NCBI GenBank assembly: GCA_002245135.1
Contig: NGBS01000873.1
Location: forward strand, 372,001-394,689
Reading direction: 5' to 3'
Source of the DNA: Proteromonas lacertae
Taxonomy: Eukaryota
Length of the DNA stretch: 22,689 nucleotides
Position 1 is the stretch's first letter. Every line of letters begins with the position of its first letter. Shown in pieces: positions 1 to 22,689 of this stretch. The notes under the pieces were generated by a model, which saw only the letters and a program-made list of their open reading frames with translations, had not been told where the DNA came from and made no database searches. Position numbers and translations under genes: made by a program.

Positions 1-987
1 TTTATTATTATAAGATTTTATTAATAAATTTCGAATTTCTTTCCATTTATTATTGTGAAGATAAAATATTGATTGAAAATTAAATGGTGATATTTCTATC
101 ATAAAATCACAACTAAATAACATTTCTTTTCTTTCTCTACATATCATCAAATTGTCTTCATCTTTCAATATTTCACTCATTTTCATCATTTCTTTTTTCA
201 ACTCTTTCAAACTCATTCTATCTTCATTTCTCATTTTCAACATTCTGAATATCATCTCTTTCATCATCAATTCATCACATTCTACATCTAAACTGTATTT
301 ACATTTCATGATATTTTCTATGGTTTTATTCACATTATTATCTTCATTGAATGGTAATTTCTTACAAATCATCTCATATAATACACAACCTATTGACCAT
401 ATCACACTTCCATCATTACATTCATATCCATTCAACTCTTCTGGACTTTTGAAGCAAATATCATACACTCTCATATTCTCTTCTCTTCTCAATGTGTTTA
501 AGTATAAATCACATAAATTAACTTCACCATCTCTTTCATATATCACATTACTACTCTTCAAATTACCAATCATTATATCATTTTCACTCAATATCATCAG
601 ATTATCACATATTGAACATATAACTCTATTTACATCACTATTCTCAACAGAGTTACTCTCAAGTAGCTCTTCTAAATCTCTTGAATAATATGATCGTGAT
701 ATCAACATATACTCATCACAATTGTAGATTTGAAGTATTTTAGAAGGATATATGAAGGGTAGACAATAATCTGACAAAAAGGAGTTTGTCTCAAGGAATT
801 CTAACATACTCTTCTCTTTCATCCACTTAACATTAATCATTTTCATTACACTAACATCATCATTATATTCTACTACAAAATCTACTTCACTAGCACCTTT
901 TTCAACTCTCTTTCTTATCTATTCACAATAAAGCAATTAATATACTTTAGAATTAGGTGGTAAGATAGAATTTAATATCTCATTCAT
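1..987 (-). CDS. Pseudokinase(-LRR) family protein, copy A; 5' part only, continues beyond the left edge
   Basis: Exon 1 987-946 (MNEILNSILPPNSK), 27-nt GT-AG intron 945-919, exon 2 from 918 (IRKRVEKGASEVDF...MKMINVKW...) open to position 1. Positions 1-918 are the reverse complement of 12119-13036 with no indels and ~16 substitutions counted by eye. The ORF track shows only its antisense shadow. Confidence 0.9.
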
Positions 988-1169: not shown

Positions 1170-2637
1170 TCAATTTGCCAACATCTCTGGTTCTACAACA
1201 TCTTCCTTCTTAAATTCCATCACATTATTAACAACTTCAACATCTATGTAATTTTCTTTATTTTCTAAACTGAAATCTGGATTCTTTACCAATTTAGAAG
1301 ATGCTCTTGTTTGTTGTGGTGGAGTTTGATTTCCTCTATTTATATTATTATTTTGCTGTGAAGATTGTTGTTCTTTCATTGCAACTAATTCAGATTTCAC
1401 TGATGATAATTCTTTTTCTAAATCTGAGCATTTATTCTTCAAGTCAGTATTTTCTTTTATTAATTCTGCTGAATTACCTCCACTTATAACTGCTGCTGTT
1501 GTATTATCACCACTTCCAGTGGCATCCTTGTATTTCTCTACCAAAGATGCCATATATTTCATATAATGTAATACATTAGTATTTGTTTCACATAAGGCTT
1601 GTTGATATGTATGTAATACAGTGGTAATCTGTCTTTTCAAAATCACAACGTAATTCTTTAATTCTGGGATATTATTGACTGATGCTGGTAATGGTTGATG
1701 TATTAGTTTGATTATTTCATTCATTGAAGTATTGACTGAAGCTGTAGTAGGAAGTGGTAATAATGCATCATCTTTTGGCATTACTATATTTACTGTGTTT
1801 TTTCTACCTGTCATATGTAGTCTTTGAGATGATGATAAATTCATATTGCTTGCCTTACGAGGTGGTAAAGGAGTTCCATCAACTCCAGTTGATGGCTTTC
1901 TATTGAGTGGTGATACTCCTCCTCCTGTAGATACTTTTCGTACTGGTGATACTGCACCATTTGACATTTTTCTTACGGGTGATCCTCCATTTGATACTTT
2001 TCTCATTGGAGCTGCTCCTGTTGATGGTTTTCTTACTACATATCCACCTACTGCACCTCTTGGACCTCTGGGTGATGCTGCTACTGGACCTCTAGCACCT
2101 ACTGGTCCTCTTGGACCTCTAGCTACTGGACCTCTTGCTCCAACTGGTCCTCTTGCTCCCACTGGACCTCTTGCTCCCACTGGACCTCTTGCACCGACTG
2201 GTCCTCTTGGTGATCCTGCGATTGGACCTCTAGCTCCAGCTGGACCTCTAGCTACTGGACCTCTTGCTCCTACTGGACCTCTTGCTCCCACTGGACCTCT
2301 TGCTCCCACTGGACCTCTTGGCGATCCTGCGATTGGACCTCTAGCTCCTACTGGACCTCTTGCACCAACTGGACCTCTAGCTACTGGACCTCTTGCTCCA
2401 ACTGGTCCTCTGGCACCTACTGGACCTCTAGCTCCAATTGGACCTCTTCCTGCTGGACCTCTCGCTACTGGACCTCCTATAATAAACAATATAAAATAAT
2501 ATAATATATACTTGCACCTATTGGACCTCTGGCAGCTCCTGCTGGATTTGAACTTGTTGCTGGTTTATAGTCTGTTAAGAAAACTATATCATGATGTTAG
2601 TCATAGTATTTTGTTTCAAAAAAAGATATGTACTCAT
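1170..2637 (-). CDS. Unknown protein: N-terminal collagen-like (GPV-GAR)n repeat, RKxS repeats, C-terminal coiled coil
   Basis: 439-aa ORF extended upstream through a 35-nt intron 2511-2477 (the join gives GA-R-GPVAR in register) and a further intron from 2633 with a TGACTAAC branch-like motif; acceptor 2584 or 2572, both in frame. ATG at 2637 is tentative. Heptad-like segment LIKENTDLKNKCSDLEKELSSVKSELVAMKE. Confidence 0.8.
2055..2545 (-). repeat. Coding tandem repeat, 18-nt unit (GPVGAR) with 15-nt (GPVAR) variants and a 111-nt higher-order duplication
   Basis: Repeated actggacctcttgctcc units on the + strand with third-position variation. The block gatcctgcgattggacctctagctcc occurs at ~2212 and ~2323. 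Confidence 0.95.
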
Positions 2638-3012: not shown

Positions 3013-5641
3013 TTAATAAATTTCTGACATTATCAATAATATTAAAGAACTCCATCCAGTAAATGGATGGGTACCCATTCCATAACCAGTTTTTGCATCA
3101 TAATGCTCCCAGATATAACCAGATCTTTTAAACTCCTTACTGATCAATAAAATTATATTACTTCTTAATTCATTATAAATAGAAGTAGCTAACTTCTTAT
3201 AGACACAATCATCACTCATATAGTTATTATATAAGCTTTGTAAAGCTAAATAATTAATATTAATCCAAATACTACCTCTCCAATAATTCTCACCTTTACC
3301 ATAATAAGGATCATCAGCTGATAAAGATCTTAATCCATAAGATGACCATAATTTAGAAGGATCTCTCATTAACTCTAGTATATTCTTCACCTCATTGTTA
3401 TTTTTAGGTACCAATCCTAATAAAAGTGGTAATATAGTAACATATCCATCATGATTGACAAATCCATGTTCATAATTGTTAGAATTTGGTGGAGGAGCAA
3501 CTGTCATACCATAATCACTAAATAATGCTCTTTCTTTATTGAAATATTCATCATATAATATTCTAAAAAAATGCTCATATTTATCTTCGTAAGGTTTACT
3601 ATCTTCATCTAAATACTTACATAATTCAATCATTATTTTATTACTATACAATATCCAACTATGTAAATCAACATGTTTATCTTCATAGATTGGCTGTAAA
3701 CCACGTGGAAAATCATCAAATCCTGAAGGTAAAACGTGATCTGCAGTTCTTTGACTCCATACAAATGTATTTGGTATAACTGAAGATTCTTGAGATGTTT
3801 CTAAATAGGTTAAATATCTTAATAAATGACGACTTATATCTCGAATTCTATCTTTAATTTGACTAGGTATTTCTATTTTCGTATGATGTTGTTGATTAGT
3901 ATTCTTATCTATTTCAATACCATTCATTTCTTTCTTTATCTCTTTAATCATTTGATAAACTGATATAAAGAATGTTGGTGGATTTGCGACTACAGGTGAT
4001 TGTATTTGGAATTTCTCTGGAACTTTACTTCTACTTTCATCTCCTAGTATTTGTTCTCTTTCAATCCAACCATTTTCTTCTTGACGATTCATCCAGGAGG
4101 ATATTACATCTAATGATAATGTTGAATTCCAATATAATACTAATATCTGTTGAAAACCTTCATCCCAAAAGAATCCTCTTGGGAAAAACGATCTGCTAGG
4201 TACTACAGTTAATAATTCACTTGGTCTTGTTTTGATTAAATGAGATGCTTTTGTTTCACCAGGCTCGATTACGGCTTGAATTGTATCACCATAAAAGTAA
4301 GTAACACTTCCTATTAGATTACTTAGAGCGAATTGAGCCATTTGTATTTCTGGTAATGTGAATTGTTTCTTTTCTCGTAGTTTGAATACTTCATCGAATT
4401 TTTGATGGAATTCTTCAGCTATTTATATGTATAAATATATAAATAAATATATATATATATATATACATTTTTGGCTTAATAATGAAGTTAATTTTTCACC
4501 TGACAATTCTTCAATTGATTTTGGTAATACTTTGGGTTGTAATTGATAAGATGAATATGATTCTGGATCAGTAGAAAAAACAATATCAATTTGAAATGGT
4601 AACTATATTTAAATATATAATATAATTAATTATTATATATATATATATATTATTATATACTCTCACTACTTTCTGTAATATCAAAGTGTTAGAATTCTCA
4701 GCTATTGTATTTGGTAGAATTGCTATTTTTGGTAATTTAAATGCTTTTTCTAACTTATTCTTTAGTTTAATATTGTTTTCAATTGGTCCAAGTGTAGCTT
4801 GTACATTTTCATGAATTGCATCAATACCTTTTTTGGATTTATATAATACTTCACTTAGAATTCTATTTAAATAAAATAATACATAAATAATATACTGTTT
4901 CATTTTCCATTGATCTTCTTCTTTTACATATGTTCCATAGAATTGAGTATTCTCTAATTCTTTAGAAGAGTCTATTTTTCTTTTCTTATAGATTCCTGGA
5001 TATGATTCTAATGGTGTTTTTTCTGTTTGTGCTCTTATTGGATATGTATTGTTTTTATTATCTGGAATATATACTGCAAAATCACCAATATCTATTGATG
5101 ATCCATAGAATGCTGTATTTCCAGAGATACCCTAAATAATTATTATTAATTATTATAAATATACATTCTTTTCCATCTTTTTTGTTATTCTTGAATAAGT
5201 GAATTCATTCTTTTCACCTTGAACTGTAACAGCAAAAAAAACACTTATATTTCTTGCATCATATACATAATCAGGATTTAATGGTAAGCCTGTTACTCTT
5301 AAACCCCAATTATTGGGAGATGTCTCTACGAATTCTGTGTACATATTGATTCCGTTGTTAGTATCTCTCAACTGTTGCTTTCCATAATTATAACCATTAT
5401 GTTCAAGCCAACCAAAAGTATCGAAGTCATCTTCATGTCTACATTCATAACGTAGTCTATCTACACTATCAGCTTCTGTCCATAATAAAGATGTCTATAA
5501 AATAAATAAAACAGATGTATTTACTTGAATAGTTCTTGGTTTTCTAGATCTAGTTCCAAAATACAAATTAGACTTTAATGTAAGTGCAGAAACAACACAA
5601 AAAATAGCACTAAATGCCAAGAACAATTCAAAATGCAACAT
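3013..5641 (-). CDS. MOGS: Mannosyl-oligosaccharide glucosidase (ER glucosidase I, glycoside hydrolase family 63)
   Basis: Six exons: 5641-5525, 5494-5165, 5131-4896, 4862-4661, 4602-4467, 4418-3013. Introns are 30, 33, 33, 58 and 48 nt, all GT-AG and phase-consistent. GH63 motifs LYFG.R, FGWLEHNG...GKQ, ALSNLIG, PSRSFFPRGFFWDEGF, ANPPT, SGFDDFPR, YWRGSIWININY, WEHY, PFTGWS. Confidence 0.95.
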
Positions 5642-5749: not shown

Positions 5750-6376
5750 CTAATTACCCCCTAACAATAAATTAGCTGCTCTATCCACATCGTTATTACT
5801 TCTTCTCAAAGCACTTATACATTCATCTCTGGTAAAGCCTAACATCAACAATGAATTTATATTCGTTTCACTAACTTCCACATCTGCTGATGAGATATCT
5901 GGAACATCATCCAAAGGATCAGCAGGTAATCCATTGCTACCATCCAAACTATTTCTACTACTTCCATTATAGCTATTTCTTTGTTGGTTCATCATCCTTT
6001 GCTCATTTTCTCTGAATAATCTTTCAATCTCTTCAACAGAAGGATCTCCTCCTAAACCACCACCCATATTATTAGCATTACCATTTCTCCTTCTATTTAC
6101 ACCATTATTCACTCTTCTTGTTATATCATAAGACTTAATTAAAGGAGCTATGTAATTCTTACCTATATTCTCTACAGACAATGGGAATTTTCGATTAATT
6201 AAATCAAATTTTACATATAGAAAGGTAAAAATAAGTGAACCAAATACAAACCAAATACTGTGAAAACCTCTACAAAACAATAAAACTACTGCCATAAAGA
6301 GTAATATGATTTTATCAGAAATGTACTGGTTGAGTATTTTAAAGTATTTATAATCAAAAGGTGGAACATAATCTAG

Positions 6377-6420
<44 letters not shown>

Positions 6421-6567
6421 GCATAAAATAACCATAAACTATATATAAATATGAAAGGTCCTGATGGATAATTCTCAGATGACAAAAAAAACTGTGAAAT
6501 GAAAATGAAGATATAAGAATAGGCTAAACTGCTTATATAGAATAAACAAAATTTATTACTTCCCCAC

Positions 6568-7796: not shown

Positions 7797-10700
7797 ATGT
7801 CTGTAGCAGTGGTATATATGTTATATTTATCATTTAAAACAGCCCGGTGCAGTTCCTACTGATGAACAAATAGCCCAAAAACAGAAACACGTAAACCCTC
7901 GTATTGGTTCACTACTACCACAAGCAAATGGTGTAGTTCCAGAGACGAGAACTTTACAAAATAGACAAGCCAAAACAGTTTTCGATAGAGTATTTATCCA
8001 TTCGTTTTTATTCATATAGATTGGTCAAGGGACGATTGTTGCAGATAAATACAGAGTAGAATCAAGGATTGGTAATGGCTCATTCGGAGAAAGTATTTCA
8101 TTCATAATTATTCATTTTAATCTATAGTTATTCGTGCTGTTGATATTCATACCAGTAAAGAAGTAGCATTAAAATTTGAAAGTTGTGGATTAAGTCGTCC
8201 ACAGCTAATCTATGAAGCAAAAATCTATGAAGCAATGAAAGGTGAAAGTATAATATCATATTATTATTATATATATTTATATATTTATTTATTATAGCTG
8301 GTTTTCCAAAACTTTTTTACGTTGGTGCCCAATTAAATTACAATATATTAGCAATGGAATTATTAGGCAACACGTTAGATTCATTATTCGAAAAACAAAA
8401 TAAGAAATTTTCACTCAAAACTGTTTTACTGATAGTCGATCAAATGTTACAAAGAATCAAAGTTCTTCACGAACATTCCTTTATACACAGAGATATCAAA
8501 CCTGAGAATTGGATGTTTGGTCAAGGAGAGCAATCAGATACATTATACATAATAGATTTTGGATTATCTAAACAATATCGAAATCCACTTACACAAGAAC
8601 ATATTCCTTATAGAGAAGATTGTAATTTGACTGGTACAGCTAGATATTGTAGTATAAATGCGCATTCAGGTGAACAATCAAGAAGAGATGATTTAGAATC
8701 GATTGGTTATTTATTAATTTACTTTTTAAAAGGTTGTTTACCATGGCAAGGAATTAGCAGAGGAGTTCAAACTGGACATATGCAAATAATAGAACAAACG
8801 AAAAAGAACACAAGTTTAGATGATTTATGTAAAGATTTACCAATTGAATTTAAGAAATATATGCAATATTGTCATGATTTAGAGTTTAAAACAATTCCTG
8901 ATTATAGATATTTGAGACTGTTATTTAGAAAATTAGCTGTTAGAAAAGGTTATAGATATGATAATATATTTGATTGGACAAGTGATGATGAAGTTAGAAG
9001 AAAGCAAAGACTTTATGCCAACCGAGAAGAAGATGAAAATGAAGATAGTGATAATGATTTTAGTAATATAGAAGATGAAGAATATTATCACGAAAAAAGT
9101 GCATTATGTTTATGGAAGAATAATGAAAAAGACAATCATGAAGAATATTATGCATTAGCAGAAGGTATTGTAGGTGGTGATATAATAAAGAGTGATATTT
9201 ATATTGAAAATTTAGAAAGCTCACATGCTCAATTGACTTGGAATCAAGTAAAAGGAGCTTATTGTATAAAAGATTGTAACACAAAATGTGGTTCATTTTT
9301 GCTATTAAGTGCTGAAAGACGATGTAGAGAGATTTTCGAACTACAAAAAGGTGATAAATTATATATAAATGATTGTGTTGAAATAGAAATAATGAATGTA
9401 GAACATACTGCTATTCCAATTGCTTCTAATTCGTTTTATATACCTGAATCAAATACTGATAATAATAATAATAATAATAATAATAAAGTAGAAGAAGGAA
9501 GAGCTTGTGAAGAAGTTAAAGTTAATAATGAGGAGGATAAAAAGAAACGAAGAAGAATTCAATTTAATGTAAAAGTAGAAGATAATGAAGGTACTAATTT
9601 AAGATTAAATGATGATATAGAAATAAATGAACCAAAGAAATATTTGATAAAAGCTCGAATCGCTGTAAGAATAGGAAAACACTATAGAAATGACGATACT
9701 AATTCATTATGTAGTAATAGTGAAATGACATGTCAAATTATTGATGTTTTACATGATATTACACTTGGTAGTTTATCAACAAATACAGTAATATTACCAG
9801 AAACATGCAGTGGAGTTCATTGTAAATTTTCAATAAAAGATGAGAAATTAACAGTAAAAGATTTAGCAGTAGGTGATCCAAATGGTACAAAATTATTATT
9901 GAACCGTCCAATAGAATTATATGAAAGAGATATCTTATTATTAGGAGATATGGAGTTTGGAGTAATGTCAGTAGCTGATTGTCCACAACTAGAAGCAGTT
10001 TGGGAGAAATGTGCAATAAGAATGACTCCTTTAAGGCGTAGTAAAAGGACACCAATTTATAATAAAGAACAATCAATAAAGAAATCAACTGTATATCAAA
10101 TCCCTCAAGATGGTGAAGTGTTAATAGGAAGAAGTACTGAATGTACAATTAGTATTGATGATTATAAACTAGCAGAAAGACATGCTTGTATGTATTATGA
10201 GAAATTAGATAAAAAATATTTATTAGAAAGCTTGGTAATGAGTCGAGCTCAAGTAACTCAATTATTATTGGGTAGAGCAAGTAGTGCAACAAAAGCACCT
10301 TATAAATTAAAGCAAGGAGATGTATTTTGCATTGGAGGAAGTCAAATTGAAATAATTGATATGAAAGTTGAAACACAAGAACAAATTGAAACTCGAGAAC
10401 AACTATCATTTGAGAGAGTAGAAATGTTATGGAAGAAAGTATCATTATTGTCATTATTACCAAAAGAAGTATTTACAAAAGTAGCTGATGCTTTAAGACC
10501 AGTATCCTTCCATGAAGGTGAAATAATTGTACAACAAGGAGAACCAGCTGCAATATTATATATAATAAAGAAAGGTAAAGTAGATATTAAATACAATAGT
10601 CGTGGTGATTTAGTAAAGTTAAAAACATTAAGTTCCCATGATTCAATCGGTGATATAGCAATAGTGAGTGGAATGGTACATACAGCTTCAGCTATAGCTG

Positions 10701-11872
10701 CTACTGAAACAGTGGAGTGTATGGCATTAGATAGTGTTTCATTTTTAAATTTTGTTGGTCCTTATCTTGGTGCAATGGGAGATGAAGCTAAAAAACGAGA
10801 TCAAGAATCAATAGTGAATGTGTTAAGTAAATTTCAATTTTTTGACAAATTACCAGTAGAAACAAATCTTCAATTAGCGAATGTATTAAGTTCAAAGACA
10901 TTTAAAGATGGTGAATATATAACGAAAGAAGGAGATAGAGATACAAATACTGAATTTTTCATAATATTAAATGGAGAAGTAAAAATAACCAAAAATCAAA
11001 ACCCTGATCATCCAATCGCTATGCTAAGTTATGGAGATTATTTAGGTGAGATAGCAATGTTGACAGGTCAAAGTCGAACAGCAAATGCAGTGGCAGTTGG
11101 ATTAGTTGAAACCTTAGTATGTAATGAAGAAAATTTCAAGAAATTATTGAAAGAACCATTTGAGAAATTGCTAGGAATAAATGCGAGTAGTGTTTTAACT
11201 CCGAATGGTGATGGAGGTCGTGGTTCAATAACAATCAATAATAATAATAATAATAAAGATGAAACTGAATTAACAATGACTCAAAGATATCGAACTCGAA
11301 AATTGAGTAATAAAGCCTTACAACCAACTCCAGTTAAAACAATAAGAGCTAGTGTAAAAGAAGGTAATACTGCTTCAAATCGAACAATTGGTTTATATGG
11401 AGGAGTAGAAGATGAAATGCAAAGTGCAAGTGAAGAAGAATTTTTCTTATCAAATGATGATGAAGATTATTTATTTGATGCAAGTAATACCTTAACGAAA
11501 GCTCATTATATAATCTTAAAAGTTCAAAGTGGTCCAATGAGAGGTGAATTATTTGCGATTGAAAGTGATTTAATAACAATAGGTCGAGGTATTTGTACAA
11601 TTACAGTGAATGATATGAGTTTAAGTAATGTTCATTGTTGTATTGAATATCGTGATGGTGGTTATTGGTTATATGATAGTGACAGTGAAAGTGGTACGTT
11701 TTTACAATTGGGAGTTGGTTTAGCATTTCCAGTTCAAGTTGGTGATGTGTTTCGATTAGGTCATACTGAATTGACAGTGTTAGGTAAAACAAAGATAGTT
11801 CAAAAGAGTAGTACAAGTGGTAAAGATGATGATGATGATGATAAAAGATCAAAATGTTGTATAATGATGTGA
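7797..11872 (+). CDS. Casein kinase 1 family kinase fused to 3 FHA-like + 2 cNMP-binding + 1 FHA domains, with C-terminal CCIMM (CaaX); ~1309 aa
   Basis: Exons 7797-7811, 7843-7989, 8020-8092, 8128-8247, 8298-11872; introns 31, 30, 35 and 50 nt; total 3930 nt. CK1 motifs IGNGSFGE, VALKFE, PQLIYE, MELLG, HRDIKPEN, IIDFGLSK, LTGTARYCSINAH, EQSRRDDLES, LPWQG, PDYRYLR, FDW. CNB motifs GEIIVQQGE...LYIIKKGKV and GEYITKEGD...FFIILNGEV...LGEIAML...RTA. FHA motifs IGR...H...GT...GD.F..G. Confidence 0.93.
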
Positions 11873-11980
11873 TTATAATAATATTTTATACTTAATAATA
11901 AATGAATAAAATAATAAAAATTTTAGTTTATTTTTTGTGTATGATATTGTTTATTAGTGGGATCATGATAAACATGAATT

Positions 11981-12040: not shown

Positions 12041-15000
12041 ATGTTTTGTGTAGAAGAGTTATTAAAATCAATTCTTCCTGTTATAGTTAAAGTATTTAAA
12101 TAAATTTGTAATGAATAGATAAGAAAGAGAGTTGAAAAAAGTGATAATGAAGTAGATTTTGTAGTAGAATATAATGATGATGTTAGTGTAATGAAAATGA
12201 TTAATGTTAAGTGGATGAAAGAGAAGAGTATGTTAGAATTCCTTGAGACAAACTCCTTTTTGTCAGATTATTGTCTACCCTTCATATATCCTTCTAAAAT
12301 ACTTCAAATCTACAATTGTGATGAGTATATGTTGATATCACGATCATATTATTCAAGAGATTTAGAAGAGCTACTTGAGAGTAACTCTGTTGAGAATAGT
12401 GATGTAAATAGAGTTATATGTTCAATATGTGATAATCTGATGATATTGAGTGAAAATGATATAATGATTGGTAATTTGAAGAGTAGTAATGTGATATATG
12501 AAAGAGATGGTGAAGTTAATTTATGTGATTTATGTTTGAATGAATTGAGAAGAGAAGAGAATATGAGAGTGTATGATATTTGCTTCAAAAGCCCAGAAGA
12601 GTTGAATGGATATGAATGTAATGATGGAAGTGTGATATGGTCAATAGGTTGTATATTATATGAGATGATTTGTAAGAAATTACCATTCAATGAAGATAAT
12701 AATGTGAATAAAACCATAGAAAATATCATGAAATGTAAATACAATGTTGATGTAGAATGTGATGAAATGATGATGAAAGAGATGATATTCAGAATGTTGA
12801 AAGTGAGAAATGAAGATAGAATGAGTTTGAAAGAGTTGAAAAAAGAAATGATGAAAATGAGTGAAATATTGAAAGATGAAGACAATTTGATGATATGTAG
12901 AGAAAGAAAAGAAATGTTATTTAGTTGTGATTTTATGATAGAAATATCACCATTTAATTTTCAATCAATATTTTATCTTCACAATAATAAATGGAAAGAA
13001 ATTCGAAATTTATTAATAAAATCTTATAATAATAAACCAAATGAAAGAATATTGGCAATATTATTGATGATGAAATTATACAAACATGATGAATCAATAA
13101 AAGAAAAACTAAAATTAATTCATCACCAGTGTAAAGATAGAAGAGAATGTTATTTAGATGAATTGATATGTAATATTGATTATTATGAAGAATTAATTAC
13201 AATTTATTCATACAGTATATGTTTATGTGATGAAGGAATTAATTTTCTGTTTAGAATATTGAAACTAATTGATCCAACACAACTGTCATTTAGTATAATT
13301 ATTTAATTAATAATACACTTAGATAATGGATATGATGATTGTGATTGTATTTCAATCCGATATCAATCATTATTTGGATTATTATTTTCTCAATTAACAA
13401 ATCTACAAGAATTAGATTTATCTTCTTGTAATCTTACTTCTGAATTCATTGAATCATTTGTTAAATCAATTCCATTGATGAAACTGAAATATTTAGATTT
13501 AATATGTATATATTATTCTATTTTCATTCTATTTTGAAATAGGTAATCCAATTGGTCCAAAAGGATTCAAATTGTTACTTCCATATTTGCATTTATTTAT
13601 CAACAAATTGAATTTTTATAAAATGAATTTAAATGATGAATCGATGATATTATTATCAAAAGAGTTATATAAATATCCAAATATTCAAGGAATAGATATT
13701 ACATCAAACAATATTCATTCAAGAGGATTAAAAGCCTTATTCTCTAAATTTCCTATTTCAAAAATCGAATTTGATTTTAATGAATGTAAAGAATTGTTGG
13801 TTGATAAAGATATTCCAGAATTAATAGAATTTATTAAAGATTATAATCAATTAAATCTGAGTTATTCAGAAATTGATGATGATTTATTCAAATCATTCAT
13901 TTCATTAAGATCAAATGAATTTGAGAAGATAAAACAGTTAGATTTGAGTTGTATATTTTAATATTTTTCTATTAATTAGATAATAAACTAACATATAAAA
14001 GTATGGAAATACTGATAAACAATTTATCTTCATTTCCTAACCTTAAACATCTTCAGTTGTATGGCAATGAAATAGGAGATGAAGGAATGAAAATATTATC
14101 TCCTCATTTAGATTTATTAAAAAATATTTATAAAAGAATAAATTGTTCAAGTATTGTTGTTATAATATTATATGTAATAGAAATGAGATTATCTTCAAGT
14201 GGTTTAAAATATTTAATAGATGGTTTAAAGAATATCGATGAAAAGATTGAACTTGATGTGAGTGATAATAATATAGATTCACATGGAATAGAGTATTTGG
14301 TGAGTTTTGTAAAAGAGAATAATAATGTTGAAAAGTTAATCATACATAGTATATTTATATCAGCATGTAATATGCTCAATAGATAATCCAATTGGTAATA
14401 TTGGATTTAGACTATTACAAAACAATTTTAACATGTTATGTGAATATAATGAAATGAATTTGAGTAACATCTCAATAGATGATGAAAGTGCAAAGTTATT
14501 AGCAGATAGAATTAATAAGATAATATGTTCTACAATCTATCTAAATGGAAATAATATTGGAATGAATGGATTGAAATCAATATGTGAAAAGTCATTAGAA
14601 AAAGAAGAATATCCATTTATAGAAATGAAGAATTTATCATGGACAAATGAAGAATTGGAATATTATTTGGATTATTGTATTAAAAAGAAAAAAGATATTT
14701 ATAATTTTTCAAGTATAATATCAAATTTCTAATGAAATAGATTTAAATCTCAACAGTTCTCATATTTCATTGTTTAAGTGGATTAATCATTATATAGAAC
14801 TTGATTTAAAATAATCATATCAATTTTAAAGGATTAAAGGAATTAATAGAATTTTCCCCAGAATATGCAGAATATATTCTAATATATAATAATCCAATTG
14901 GAGATGAAGGAATAGAGATAATGTGTAAATACTTAGATAAATTCGTTGAATATTTTAAATCATTAAATCTTTCAAGTATTATATGAATATTATCTATTTG

Positions 15001-15385: not shown

Positions 15386-17205
15386 TTAACTACTAGAAGG
15401 TAATGGAGTTGATTCAGTATTAGTAGGAGCAGTTGGTAATTCTTGTGGTTTCATTGCTGGGAATAACAATACTTCCTTAATATTATTACTATCTGTTAGT
15501 AACATTGTCAATCTATCTACACCTAATCCCCAACCACCAGTTGGTGGTAAACCATATTCTAAGGCTACACAGAAATCTTCATCATAAGGCTGAGCTTCAT
15601 CATCTCCAGCACTTTTATCTTTCATTTGACCCATAAATCTTTCTCTTTGAACTTTTGGATCATTCAATTCAGTATAAGCATTTATTAATTCAAAACAATT
15701 CACAAATAATTCAAATCTTTCAGTTAATCCTGGAATACTTCTGTGGAATTTAGCTAATGGTGAGCAAATCTCAGGATGATCACAAATAAATGAAGGATTT
15801 GTACATTTTGGTTCAATAAAATGTTCTACCAATTTATCTAATAATCTAGCTGTTGTTTTAGGGTCTGGACAGTCGACTTGTAACTCTTCACATTTCTTAA
15901 GTAAAAAATTATGACATTCATCACTTTCTAATGGTTTAGGAATGGTAAATCCTCCAAATTCTTCTACGCTTGAAACCATTGAATATCTCTTCCATGGTGG
16001 AGTAAAATCAATCTTTACAGGTTCATTTTCCATCCCATTACTGTGATATTCGATTATATAACTACCTGTTACTTCTTTAACCATTTTACTGATCATATCT
16101 TCAGTCATATTCATTAAATCATTATAATCAGCATAAGCCATGTAAAATTCACAAGTGGTAAATTCTGGATTGTGAGTTAAATCAATACCTTCGTTTCTAA
16201 ATTGTCGACCAATCTCATAAACTCTATCTAGTCCACCTACTACTAACTGTTTCAAATATAATTCAGGAGCTATTCTCATGAATAATTCCATATTTAAATC
16301 ATTGTGATGAGTTACAAATGGCTTGGCTGTTGCTCCACCTGCTTTCATATTCATCATAGGAGTTTCAACTTCTAAGAATCCTAAATTATCTAAATATTTA
16401 CGAATTGAACGGATTATATTAGCTCTTGTGTTGAATATTGTTCTAGTTTTATCTCTAATCATTAAATCTAAGTATCTTTGTCTGTATCTTGTTTCTTGAT
16501 CCTTCAATCCAATTCTTGCATCTGGCATCATGTATAAACAGGGTGATAATATTTGTATTGTATGTGCGAAAATGGATAATTCACCTCTCTTTGTCTTGCC
16601 TGGGAATCCTACTACACCAATAATATCACCTCTCTTGATCTTGTTGTTGCATGTGATGAATTGTTGAGTTTTTTCTTCCTCTGAACTTCCTTCGGATGGA
16701 GTGTAGTACATTAAGTTACACATAACTTGTACTTTTGATCCTTCTCCATGACAATCGTAAAATACTAATTTACTTCCACTTGAACGTTTACTGTATACTC
16801 TTCCTGCAATACTTACAGATTGGTCCGTCAATAATTGGTCATTTTCCAAATCCTTGTATTTCTCGACATATTCTGGGATTCTAAGAGAAACTTGAAATTT
16901 GTGAGGATAATATGCTTTTTCATCAGCAAATACAACCTTTGAACGATTTTCATGATATTTCCATGGATCAGTTTCTTCAGTATCTTTATCTAAAGATGCT
17001 CCTTTACCTTTACCTTCTCCATCTTCAGCTTTTTTAGCAGCTTTAGCTGCTTCCTTTTCAGCTTTCTTTTTTGCAGCTTCTTCAGCCTTCTTTCTTCTTT
17101 TAAGTTCATTTTTACTCAAAGTTTCACCTAATGATAAAATAAGCAAAATTTTGCAATACCTCCTTCAACTGGAACTTCTGGAGCTTGTTCTACTTTATCA
17201 CTCAT
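15386..17205 (-). CDS. KARS: Cytosolic lysyl-tRNA synthetase (class II)
   Basis: Exon 1 17205-17160 ([15 protein letters not shown]), 32-nt intron 17159-17128, exon 2 17127-15386. Motifs [81 protein letters not shown]. Confidence 0.98.
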
Positions 17206-17382: not shown

Positions 17383-18314
17383 TTATATATCCATAGAATG
17401 GTATCCTGGACAGGACGAAAAAATATCACTGTAATCATCATTGAACTCATCATACCACGTGTTTTGATTTAAAAAATCTTGTGAAAATGATGATTCTCTT
17501 GGTGAGTCATGTATAAACGAAGGAGTTTGTAATAAGGACGATTGAGAAGACAATAAAGGTAGTTGCATCTGTTGTTGTTGTTGCTGCTGCTGCTGCTGCA
17601 ATTGCTGTTGTTGTAACAAATCTTGTTGTTGTTGATAAATATTATACTGCGGCAAAGCGTAATTATCACAGTTGGTAGTGTTGGTATTATCAATATTATT
17701 ATTATTATTAGTAGTAGTAGTGGTAATACAACTATTCTGAGGACAAGGTGGAATGTTTAAATAATACGAGGAATCTGAATATAAATTAGGATTACACAAC
17801 GAAATAGGACTTTGTTGAATGGAAGTATTCTCATTAGTAGATGTATTGGACATGTATTGAGGTTTTGGACCAATTAAAGGCAAATGTTTTAGTGTAACGC
17901 ATTGGTTAGGATTATAATATTGCGGCTGATAATTGAATTGTATAGGGTACTGCATAGGCATAGAATCAATGTCAAATGTAATGTTCTGTTTTGATAATTT
18001 CTGAAAATACTTTTGAGCATGAGTACGGACTTGTACAACAGTTCTAGTTTTAACTAAAGTAGAAATCATTTTCCAATCTTTGCCGTACTTATCTAAACCC
18101 TCAAGAAAAAGATCATGTTCCTCTTTTGTCCAACGGCCTACAGTATAGTGTTTGTTGGTATACCGATGTGATCAGCAAAAGTTTTTGTGTGGTGTTTTTG
18201 TTTAGTTGGCTGTTCATATTGACTCATTTTCTGTAATTCCTAAAACATATAAATTCTACTCCATACATTTTGACTTAGCGAATTATCTAACGACATAAAT
18301 GGTATAGTTTCCAT
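17383..18314 (-). CDS. Single-repeat MYB-related transcription factor (SHAQKYF class) with Q/N-rich C-terminus
   Basis: Exons 18314-18267, 18239-18164, 18137-17383; introns 27 and 26 nt. Splicing restores [45 protein letters not shown]. The start could also be the downstream ATG at 18296. Confidence 0.9.
17570..17635 (-). repeat. CAA/CAG polyglutamine coding repeat
   Basis: [22 protein letters not shown] in the MYB C-terminus. Confidence 0.9.
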
Positions 18315-18623: not shown

Positions 18624-19521
18624 TTATGTTAACATATTATACAAAGTCAGTCCAACAGCGACAATTAAGACGATCATCACAAGATATCTACAAAAGTGAT
18701 CTTCTTTTTTAGCTTCATCTATTAGCCTGTTCAATTCTTTGTTATTCTTATCTAATTTTGCTTGTTGTGTGTCCATATTTTTATCTATATCGTTAATCTT
18801 CTGTTCCTGTTTCTTCAACTCATCTCCCATATTTGTGGCTATATCTTTGAGAGTATCCAAACCATCTCCTATTATATTAATCATATCATCAATCTCTTTG
18901 TCATTTTGCTGTATTTGTGCTAAAGCTTGTTTCTGATCTTCTGTTAATTCTGGATTTTCAGCTTCACCTCCAGCTGTTGATGGAATTTTCCCATCTTCTG
19001 GTATAGTTTGGATATCGTCATTTTTACATACAAAATCATCATCATCATTCATCACTTTTTCTTCTGCATCTTTTTAATTTCCATTATTTCTTTGAGAAGT
19101 TCTGTTATTACTTTAGTTCGAAATTGCTTTTCATCTGGAGTTAATTTAGACTATTTATATTAAATAGTTATAATCGAATATAAAATACTCTTCTACTTTT
19201 ATTTTCTTGTTCTATTAATTCACCCTAAACTATTAAAGTCAGCTAAAACCTGATTCAATTCATATCGAATTGAGGAGTTCATCTCAATTACAAGTCTACG
19301 ATTACTTCCTGCTTCTATTAGTGCATTTCTTTTGGTTATTAACTATTCAATAAAACAATATATTTTACTTCTCGAGTTTCGTCAATCTCAGCATTTCACC
19401 TTCTTCTTCATTCTAAAGAAATTGATCGAGCTTCTTTTTTAACCTGTGGGTCTTCAAGGTCTACAGTATAGACTTCTTGCAATTCAAGAATTCTCTTTAT
19501 TATCGGCTCCACTTCACTCAT
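18624..19521 (-). CDS. Qc-SNARE (SYP7/syntaxin-like) with C-terminal transmembrane anchor; several apparent frameshifts
   Basis: ATG 19521 (MSEVEPIIKRILELQE), introns 19368-19343 and 19188-19151. SNARE motif NDKEIDDMINIIGDGLDTLKDIATNMGDELKKQ...IDKNMD...LDKNNKELNRL, then TM FCRYLVMIVLIVAVGLTLYNML. The 5' half needs single-base corrections in homopolymer runs near 19435, 19420, 19395, 19223 and 19055-19080. Confidence 0.8.
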
Positions 19522-19585: not shown

Positions 19586-20497
19586 ATGAATTTAAATTTA
19601 TATGTGTATCAAGCAAGAAACCTGAGAAAGGTACAAACTTTTGGAAATCAGTCCGCCAGTGGCTGTAATTACAGTGGGTGAAAGGAAGTTTCAAACCTCT
19701 GTTAGTGAAAATACTGGAAAAGAAGCAAGTATTGATTATGATTTTAAAATGAAATAGAATGGGATGATTTAGTGGAGATACTGTTGATGGAAATACTAAA
19801 AATATATTCATTGAAGTGTATGTCCAAATCTTTTATTTTTAAATAGTTATGATAAAAAAATATCTTCTAGATCAATGATTGGAATGGTTGGAATAGCTAT
19901 TGCGCAATTGTTTCAAAATAGAGGATATCTCAATCGAATTTGGTTGCCTATATCACACGAATCTGGATTTATAAGTAAATCTAAAAAACCAGCAGGTGAA
20001 ATAGAAATAGAAATTGAACCATTAGTGGCTTATAAACCAAGGGAAGAACCATTATCTAAAAACACTACTAAATCAGGTTCAAAACTATCAGAGGATCACA
20101 AGGTTCAAATGGTGGTAGAACTTCCCTTAGAAATACTGGTAATCTATTAACAGAACCGTCTTTAACAAAACCTAAAAGAAGATCGATAACTACACCTGCA
20201 TCCACTGCTCCTATGCCTGGTGCTATTGGTGCAGAGGGACTTGAGAAAAAACCAATGCCACTTCCTGTTCCTAACTGCTATCCTGGTGGATTTATTCCTC
20301 CTGTTAAACTCAATGATAATAAAAATAAGACAGAGACTCTGACTGAAGTTACTGCTGGTAATTTTTCACCTCCTAAAGCTCAAAAGAAAGATGCTATTCC
20401 TCCGCCTTGTAGATTCGAACCTCCTGATAATGTAGCACTTCCTTCTTCTACTGATGAACTTCCTCCTAGATTTTCTCCTCCTGCAGCTGAAAGCTAA
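19586..20497 (+). CDS. C2-domain protein with proline-rich C-terminal tail; apparent frameshifts
   Basis: C2 strands LNLYVYQARNLRKVQTFGNQSP.AVITVGERKFQT...KEAKW...IFIEVYDK...MIG...IAIAQL...WLPI...KPAGEIEIEIE. Introns 19729-19757 and 19818-19846. Frameshifts near 19653, 19780 and 20085 join the ORF-track fragments. Confidence 0.75.
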
Positions 20498-20660: not shown

Positions 20661-22689
20661 ATGGATTTTGATATATTAGAATTAGAAGCAGCTATACCGA
20701 AGGTAAAAAACCTTCTTTTGCGTAAAGTAAGAAAATTTAGAGCAAAAAAAGAGAAGAAAATAGCCATGCAAGCAGAAAAAGAGAGAATTAAGAAGTTAGC
20801 GAATAATAGACCAAGGCAGATTGTAATAAAAAAGAATTATGAACAAGTTATTGGATTATTAGAACATGATGTTGGAACGTATGATTTTTATTTTAGTTTC
20901 TTAGTCGTTTATCGTTGAGTCATGTTTTATCTGCTGATGGCTATAAGACTAAAGAATTTGCAGATGTAAAATCAATTTGATTACCTCAAAGACAATACAA
21001 TGGAATTAATTATCTGTGATTTAGTTATTCCTATTTTTTCAAATATTACAAATGGTCAAAAATTGTTGCAATGTATTAATTCAACAATGTCTAAAGAAAT
21101 GGGGCAGTTATATATGGATAAAAATGATACAATTCCAATAAGAGTTCCAGTTATAGTCACAATTGATAAAGATAAATTTGATTTACAACAGGAGTATATA
21201 ATAATATATATATACATATAGTATAATCCAAGATTGTCTTAAAATGGGAGTTACAGGATATGTAATAAAACCAATTGGTTTAAATTCACCAGTGATTAAA
21301 AAAATAGAAGAAATTATTAAATTAAATCATATTTCTGGTAAAGTTTATACATCTGTAATGTCTGTTGATTATAATATAGCAAGAGTATATATATATAATA
21401 ATAATTATTATTATTATTATAAACTAGAGTCATTTAGGAGATGATGAAGTAATAGAATATCAAGAAGAATTATTAAGAGCAGATGTAGATGTAAATAACC
21501 ATAGATTAGACGATATAAATAAAAAATATGTTGAAAATCGTGTATCTAAAATCTACAGAACATCAATAATACCTGAAGAGCAAAGTACTGGTAGAAAATC
21601 TTCACTTAGTGAAGGACCAAGGCCATATTCTACACCAAGCTTGACACATCAATCCTCTTTTATTGCTTCACCCAATAATGTTCCATTGAGAAGACTTTCA
21701 AGATGTTCCACTGCTAATCCATCAGCTATATTAACTCCAGATAAACGAGGAGAACAGGGTAGTAAATTCACATTCATGCCAATTGATAATAAAGGAGAAA
21801 TGGTAGATGAAGAACCAATATTAGCTGAATCTCCATTAACTAAAAAGAAGAAAGAAAAATTGAAGTTCCTGTTGCTCAAGCTACAATTATTAATCCAAAA
21901 GATGTTAGTAAAATCCTTAGACCAGGAGTTTCTCCTTATTTTCCAGCTGTAAAAGGTGATCCAGAAATTAAATTCAATAAAATTACCAACTATCAGCCAG
22001 TATTATTACAAAGTGATATAAGAGAATTAGAGTTTAGAAGATGTGCTGATACACCATCTGATGATTATTTAAGTAAAGGATATGAACAAATGAAGAAGAA
22101 TCAATTAAAAAGAGCAATTCAACTGTATAATAGAGGTATAAAATTAGTTCCAAAATTCAAAAATGGTGATCCAGTAACACCATCTGCTACAATTATATTT
22201 TGTAATTTATATTTTGCTAAATCAATGGCATTATTCAAAATGAGACAAATGGAAGAAGCAATTGCTGATATGACAACTTGTTTAAAATATCAACCCAATA
22301 ATGCAGCTGCTTTATATAATCGAGGTATTATGTATTCACATGTAGGTAAATTTAATGAGAGTATTGAAGATTTTACTATAGCAATACAGAATTCACCAGA
22401 TGACATTGATTGCTATAAGAATAGAGCTTTAGTATATAGAAGATTAGGTTTCTTTGTTGAAGCTCAGACTGATTATAATATTGCTAAACAATTACAAGGG
22501 AAAATTTGTACTATGAGTGATGTATATATTATTATATAATATTTTGTGTTTATATATATATAGTTGGTACAAAATTTGATTAGACAGAAAAGAGCAGAAA
22601 GAGAGAAGAAAGGAGATATTGAAGTATATGATGCAAGTGGTATAATATTATATATTATTATTATTATTTGAATAGTGAGTATTCATAGT
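20661..22689 (+). CDS. Response-regulator receiver (REC) domain + TPR-repeat protein; 3' end beyond the window; two apparent frameshifts
   Basis: Introns 20879-20904, 21194-21221, 21385-21427, 22522-22563, 22640-22675. REC pattern VIGLLEHD...LSHVLSADGY...ELIICDLVIP...NGQKLLQCI...VPVIVT...CLKMGVTGYVIKP. TPRs ALYNRGIMYSHVGKFNESIEDFTIAIQNSP and CYKNRALVYRRLGFFVEAQTDY. Frameshifts near 20978 and 21850. Confidence 0.8.

Follow-up and report, generated by a model that had tools for sequence, protein, structure and literature searches.

Can a casein kinase 1 (CK1), the textbook kinase without accessory domains or second-messenger input, come under the control of a cyclic nucleotide? The question is raised by a gene in a 22,689-nucleotide (nt) stretch of Proteromonas lacertae DNA (contig NGBS01000873.1 of assembly GCA_002245135.1, positions 372,001 to 394,689 of the forward strand), referred to below as the window. 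A first-pass annotation had proposed that this gene joins a CK1 to four forkhead-associated (FHA)-like folds and two cyclic nucleotide-binding (CNB) domains, making it a candidate kinase gated by cyclic nucleoside monophosphates (cNMPs). We find that the modules are read in one frame which ends in a predicted lipid-anchor motif, and that only the second CNB domain, CNB-B, keeps a complete phosphate-binding cassette. On sequence grounds, a cNMP-gated CK1 stands as a possibility through CNB-B, and not through a tandem of the PKA-R/PKG type.

The kinase, its reading frame and its relatives

The catalytic domain carries a glycine loop and the motifs VALK, HRDIKPEN, DFG and SIN..SRRDDLES. The catalytic Lys and Glu are kept, as are HRD and DFG, and SIN stands where APE would be, which is the signature of CK1. 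Of 146 BLAST rows, 120 are CK1 relatives that cover 250 residues or more; the kinase retains 63 of the 65 columns that are conserved at 90% or more in this set, and a one-residue deletion lies behind SINAH. It is ~50% identical to CK1 family members, and among solved structures CK1s match it best (E 6.5e-79), with TTBK reaching only 4e-33. Phylogeny, suggested in the first-pass annotation as a check, resolved no close sister: in a tree of 121 sequences, the nearest neighbour is a CK1 on a long branch. Judged by its catalytic domain, the predicted protein is a CK1 and not a PKG, and it is very probably an active enzyme. The single-domain architecture, which is typical of CK1s without defining them, is not that of the window protein.

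The gene model opens with an ATG at 7797 and runs as a single frame of 1309 amino acids (aa) to 11872, interrupted by four GT..AG introns of 31, 30, 35 and 50 nt. The window is eukaryotic, with a GC content of 28.6%. Its low GC and short introns suit Proteromonas (27% GC, with introns mostly of 24-46 nt as judged from the opening annotation rows) as well as tortoise Blastocystis (21-23% GC), and a firm assignment to Blastocystis was rejected. Exon 5 (8298-11872) is a single frame without stops that holds part of the CK1 domain together with the FHA folds and CNB domains, as had been claimed at first, and the boundaries agree within a few codons. On this long open reading frame (ORF), Pfam reports cNMP_binding at 118.6 bits (two stretches), FHA at 88 bits (three stretches) and Pkinase at 65.7 bits. 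A codon model, for which four other ORFs in the window served as training set, gave a positive coding signal in 38 of the 39 30-codon blocks of exon 5, and a negative score in all three frames for introns 1 and 4; three intergenic controls belonged to the background of this model and are thus not independent.

The linker between the kinase and FHA1 looks coding throughout. Its blocks at 9020-9199 score 19.4 and 19.1 bits, among the higher values of exon 5, and non-coding DNA would show a run of 55 codons without a stop with a probability of 0.008. No intron candidate was found within exon 5, the sole candidate straddling the stop codon. A 71-nt intron at 11856-11926, which would delete the tail, was rejected because the C-terminal tail is conserved in orthologues. 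Furthermore, a frame scan found no in-frame Met between residues 307 and 484, so that a separate gene beginning at FHA1 would have no start codon. The single-gene fusion originally proposed is upheld by these features, and we are highly confident that the kinase, FHA folds, CNB pair and tail share one transcript.

Alternatively, the kinase could be one gene and the FHA-CNB-CaaX module another, or their fusion could be recent and private, with the common frame stemming from an assembly error or from a transcript cut by polyadenylation. A kinase and an FHA fold in one piece were seen in no relative found, overlapping same-strand frames at two other sites of the window may be indel errors, and Blastocystis genes can end by polyadenylation, giving chimeric models (available part of PMC5608401). 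However, the linker is coding-like, and the Blastocystis polyadenylation motif TGTTTGTT has no exact + strand copy within the ORF, its only one-mismatch + strand copy there sitting in the kinase core. One + strand copy stands 109 nt past the stop, and the window holds three copies where 1.94 are expected, which is no enrichment. The absent junction is itself accounted for by the orthologous pieces, which stop at AT-rich intron read-throughs or at contig ends. We consider two genes, or a private fusion, very improbable.

Among the best 150 phmmer matches in a library of 1.84 billion representatives, 147 fit the CK1 profile and the other three are CNB proteins; neither a CNB nor an FHA domain was matched in any of the 147. 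Because annotated CK1s of plants, animals and metamonads are part of the library, a CK1-CNB fusion that was common would be expected at the top of the ranking, although a fusion could hide within a cluster of this library, which is clustered at 50% identity. A word search over proteins of 654-2083 residues returned one PKG-like protein and nothing else. Orthologous pieces were found as Logan fragments: five cover parts of FHA3-CNB-A-CNB-B-FHA4 (among nine matches) and one covers FHA1-FHA2-FHA3. Those over the CNB pair are 53-61% identical to the window protein and 50-97% identical to one another, representing about four lineages besides the window; P0162 and P0172 have the same longest-contig value (4165), which suggests one locus. 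Several lineages thus share the predicted FHA-CNB-CNB-FHA-CaaX module. DNA scans yielded no orthologous locus in metagenomes (three weak CNB loci), in prokaryotes (the best 80 of 112 CNB loci, at 24-39% identity) or in viral contigs.

Two other proteins met among the searches are of separate interest. P0090 (1333 aa, two contigs) has a CK1 domain and a calcium-dependent kinase with EF hands, and is possibly another CK1 with a second-messenger module or else a read-through model. In P0004 (3779 aa), 12 cNMP-binding domains come after a set of adenylate-kinase-like repeats.

The CNB pair and its possible ligands

Scored alone, CNB-A and CNB-B reach 59.8 and 64.3 bits in Pfam. A structure model of the pair, drawn from 42 sequences, has a predicted local distance difference test (pLDDT) score of 82.7 and resembles the tandems of PKA-R and PKG (E 2e-24), in keeping with the tandem fold expected at first pass. 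CNB-B has the cassette G-E-I-A...R-T-A, which matches that of CNB-B in PKG I-beta position by position; in an alignment of six sequences over the pair (A1; 53-61% identity to the window protein), its G-E and Arg are retained in all six. This Arg, which neutralises the cyclic phosphate according to the available part of PMC10959531, is lost from CNB-A in 6/6, with His, Tyr (four sequences) or Ser in its place. The invariant Arg of CNB-B beside its loss throughout CNB-A points to selective retention of CNB-B, and since CNB-A lacks the Arg in all six sequences, the pair would not be a working tandem of the PKA-R/PKG type. Hence, the tandem proposed in the first-pass annotation holds as two CNB domains with the appropriate fold, but only CNB-B has the complete phosphate cassette. 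The candidate reading in which both domains are functional was rejected for the missing Arg of CNB-A.

We expect, with fair confidence, that CNB-B binds a cNMP. Behind its Arg stands Thr (1/6), Asn (four) or Ser, but Ala in none of the six, a slight hint at cyclic GMP (cGMP) as the putative ligand; CNB-B is without the beta-5 Arg of the PKG selective pocket. CNB-A retains the Gly and acidic residue, the beta-5 L-[K/R] and Ser/Thr11 in 6/6, and the latter two are features of the PKG guanine pocket.

The altered CNB-A, with its retained residues, leads to a further reading, namely that the pair no longer senses endogenous cNMP: CNB-A would be repurposed for a nucleoside or be structural, and CNB-B would be a relic or sense external cNMP. 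Trypanosomatid PKAR has lost the same Arg and, with a Glu at cassette position 3, became a nucleoside sensor, and putting the Arg back in the trypanosome protein gives a response to cyclic IMP (available part of PMC10959531). However, that ribose-cassette Glu is absent from CNB-A, where position 3 is Ala, Ser (four sequences) or Asp (one), and the Arg of CNB-B is invariant. The cyclic-nucleotide background of the lineage bears on both sides. All eight Blastocystis genomes have 2-7 CNB genes with 0 cyclases and 0 cNMP phosphodiesterases (Table S5 of PMC12129017; also PMC13466520, in part), whereas the flagellated Proteromonas is credited in the same available material with 14-16 cyclase genes and 75 CNB genes; nor is TGTTTGTT, as noted above, enriched in the window. 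A pair that has ceased to sense endogenous cNMP is, on balance, unlikely. That Blastocystis keeps CNB genes without cyclase or phosphodiesterase (available part of PMC12129017) is a puzzle regardless of the source of the window.

FHA-like folds, the tail and a possible switch

The four FHA repeats align with one another at Gly, His, Leu and Asp, and a profile built from them retrieves 24 solved sequences (E up to 0.01), including the FHA domains of OdhI, Ki-67 and CHFR. FHA2, FHA3 and FHA4 lie above the Pfam cut-off of 20.7 bits; FHA1 is the weakest call (E 0.004), and its C-terminal half is 63% identical to P0162. Phospho-Thr binding in FHA domains is mediated by G-R, S-x-x-H and N-G-T, for which the reference, OdhI, has G-R, S-R-R-H and N-G-T. 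The first-pass suggestion that these folds read phospho-Thr finds little in their residues: none of the four has the full set. Compared with OdhI, FHA1 is without Arg and Ser, FHA2 without Arg, and FHA3 without Ser and N-G-T, while FHA4 has the Arg and Ser but not the Asn. In both orthologous lineages that cover FHA4, its Arg has become Thr or Lys and its Ser has become Asn, although the fold is still 67-76% identical (66-76% for FHA3 and FHA4 together). What selection has maintained is thus apparently something other than the reading of phospho-Thr. A general role as phospho-readers was rejected, the binding residues being mostly lost or not conserved, and a docking or structural role is more likely for these predicted folds. 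A joint structure model of FHA3-CNB-CNB-FHA4, made from six sequences only, reached a pLDDT of 31.

The first-pass annotation had overlooked the conserved CCxxM tail. The C-terminal CIMM fits Cys-a-a-X, as do CSTM and CTVM in orthologues, and the sole orthologous cluster reaching the C-terminus has CCSTM in P0155 and P0167 and CCTVM in P0166. By the CaaX rule, the second Cys would be prenylated and the first Cys of CC palmitoylated, and we predict with good confidence that the tail carries both modifications. A palmitoylated, membrane-anchored CK1 is known in CK1-gamma (available part of PMC9157009). Among other CK1 matches, a Cys likewise stands four residues from the end in P0002, P0041, P0071, P0088 and P0105. 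Some of these tails are CaaX-like, so that a prenyl-type tail may not be unique among CK1s.

We tentatively propose a membrane-anchored CK1 that is gated by a cyclic nucleotide through CNB-B. The lipid-modified CCIMM tail would anchor the protein to the membrane, and the kinase would be braked intramolecularly, either by the acidic linker at 8978-9139, a candidate autophosphorylation tail, in its autophosphorylated state, or by the R[RK]xS segment behind CNB-B, which may be a PKA-type site or an inhibitor-like sequence. A cyclic nucleotide would then occupy CNB-B only and switch the kinase on, with CNB-A and the FHA folds acting as structural or docking modules. Whether cNMP binding frees the kinase from such a brake is, in our view, an evenly balanced matter. 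In its boldest form, the proposal would make this the first CK1 to answer directly to a second messenger: a conserved protist kinase, anchored to the membrane, with one CNB pocket as its cyclic-nucleotide switch, a PKG-like device that arose independently on a CK1 scaffold, and possibly with a CNB-A for a non-cyclic guanine ligand; so much we offer as a somewhat doubtful possibility.

Several observations weigh against gating. The kinase and CNB-A are ~480 residues apart with three folds between them, and the order of the domains is opposite to that of PKG. None of the orthologous fragments found reaches the kinase, so that the kinase fusion is read from the window sequence alone. Within CNB-B, Ala stands at cassette position 3 in 4/6 sequences, with Ser or Thr in the other two, and Thr11 is present in just one of the six; the Thr anchors cGMP in PKG, but by itself it gives a ~two-fold cGMP preference in CNB-A of PKG (available part of PMC3080414). 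To these may be added the Blastocystis genomes without cyclases or phosphodiesterases. A complex prediction that paired the kinase segment encoded by exon 5 with the two CNB domains scored 0.00; it did not use alignments and counts neither way.

Alternatively, CNB-B may bind cNMP while the kinase is constitutive, the protein being a membrane-proximal scaffold whose shape shifts the location or substrate of the kinase. CK1s are described as single-domain kinases in the available parts of PMC4177888 and PMC3019232, as this reading would have it. The two CNB domains are remote from the kinase but adjoin FHA4 and the lipid tail, and the conserved surfaces of FHA3 and FHA4 (66-76%), without phospho-reader residues, fit protein docking. 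However, the R[RK]xS motif that stands right behind CNB-B in five of the six sequences looks like an inhibitor or regulatory site, and we find this reading unlikely.

Should CNB-B be a working pocket, the gated kinase would show how a CK1 scaffold becomes ligand-gated, and signals from cyclic AMP or cGMP would reach acidic or phospho-primed substrates and not basic PKA/PKG sites. If the lineage is cyclase-less, the gene bears on why such protists retain CNB proteins. The reach of these implications is limited by the narrow lineage, by a fusion seen in a single sequence and by the CNB grafts already published on other non-AGC kinases.

Neighbouring loci and known systems

Table 1. Positions, within the window, of the features of the CK1 gene and of its ordinary neighbours
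Feature	Position	Strand	Basis or remark
Gene model, 5 exons	7797..11872 (7797-7811, 7843-7989, 8020-8092, 8128-8247, 8298-11872)	+	1309 aa; predicted from sequence
CK1 catalytic domain, aa 64-345	8047..8977	+	Spans introns 3 and 4; conserved-column count, solved relatives
Acidic linker with Ser residues	8978..9139	+	Coding-like; without stop, in-frame Met or intron candidate
FHA-like fold 1, degenerate	9140..9403	+	G-G for G-R; Glu at Ser position; 17.9 bits, below cut-off
FHA-like fold 2	9734..9973	+	G-S for G-R; S..H and NGT here, not in P0162; 21.7 bits
Conserved RRSKRTP basic motif between FHA2 and FHA3	10034..10054	+	RKSKRTP in P0162; alignment with orthologues
FHA-like fold 3	10088..10366	+	G-R present; Ala at Ser position; no NGT; 26.5 bits
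CNB-A, degenerate cassette 10649-10690	10424..10762	+	Glu replaced by Asp and Arg by His; beta-5 L-K retained, as is the Thr behind the Arg position; Pfam, alignment A1, model
CNB-B, complete cassette 11045-11086	10811..11158	+	G-E-x-A...R-T-A; predicted cNMP site; Pfam, alignment A1, model
R[RK]xS motif (RKLS), linker from CNB-B to FHA4	11297..11308	+	5/6 of alignment A1; absent in P0006
FHA-like fold 4	11504..11791	+	G-R, S-x-x-H, S-G-T here; Arg, Ser replaced in orthologues; 42.6 bits
KRSKCCIMM: CaaX box, upstream Cys and basic residues	11843..11869	+	Predicted prenyl/palmitoyl membrane anchor
Glycoside hydrolase 63	3013-5494	-	Ordinary neighbour
UBA protein	5750-6523	-	Ordinary neighbour
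Lysyl-tRNA synthetase	15386-17164	-	Ordinary neighbour
Myb protein	17383-18171	-	Ordinary neighbour
SNARE-like protein	18624-19073	-	Label by eye

Besides the neighbours listed in Table 1, two kinase-like gene copies, 96% identical and inverted, lie at 1-981 (- strand) and at 12056-13036 (+ strand, going on to ~15307), with the CK1 gene in the 11-kb block between them. The product is probably a pseudokinase, its HRD and DFG being seemingly replaced, and LRR_6 repeats lie behind the + strand copy. At 1170-2564 (- strand), an ORF has a GC-rich repeat of 18-nt units encoding collagen-like Gly-Pro-x-Gly-Ala-Arg units, and a coiled coil comes after it. Overlapping same-strand frame pairs occur at 19815-20497 and 21428-22539 (both + strand), one C2-like by eye and one ending in TPR repeats; these overlaps may be assembly indel errors or tiny introns.

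The literature searched for a CK1 with FHA or cNMP domains, which included few subscription papers, does not describe this layout; supplements, or the Blastocystis gene annotations of PMC12129017, may list it. Within that scope, the early statement that no characterised protein has the layout stands, and the combination of a CK1, four FHA-like folds, two CNB domains and a lipid-anchor motif is apparently undescribed, CNBs on other non-AGC kinases having been published.

Yeast Yck1/2 carry a membrane lipid anchor. With these proteins and the rest of the CK1 family, such as CK1-gamma/Gilgamesh, the window protein shares a ~50% identical catalytic domain, all catalytic motifs and a C-terminal Cys motif. 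It differs in its FHA folds, CNB domains and CaaX-type anchor, known CK1s being single-domain in the available part of PMC4177888. The CK1s of P. infestans have no extra domains in the accessible part of PMC3019232, which places cNMP domains on AGC and CAMK kinases, and the trypanosomatid kinase tables of PMC1266030, as far as available, place cNMP on STE kinases and FHA on CAMK and STE kinases. CNBs are indeed carried by non-AGC proteins such as the L. major STE kinase LmjF15.1200, CAMK-group kinases of P. infestans and oomycete/plant PP2C-CNB-pseudokinase proteins; none of these is a CK1, and the published tables in the available parts of both papers (PMC1266030, PMC3019232) have no CK1 bearing cNMP or FHA domains.

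Trypanosomatid PKAR resembles CNB-A in having lost the cassette Arg, but both of its sites are changed and Glu stands at position 3 (available part of PMC10959531), whereas in the window protein the change affects CNB-A only, with Ala or Ser, and Asp in one sequence, at that position. PKG and PKA-R offer the closest match for the CNB pair, in tandem fold as in sequence, and the CNB-B cassette is of the type found in CNB-B of PKG I-beta. From these the window protein differs in its kinase, which is CK1 and not AGC and lies N-terminal to the CNBs, in a CNB-A without Arg and a CNB-B without the beta-5 Arg, and in its four FHA-like folds and C-terminal lipid motif.

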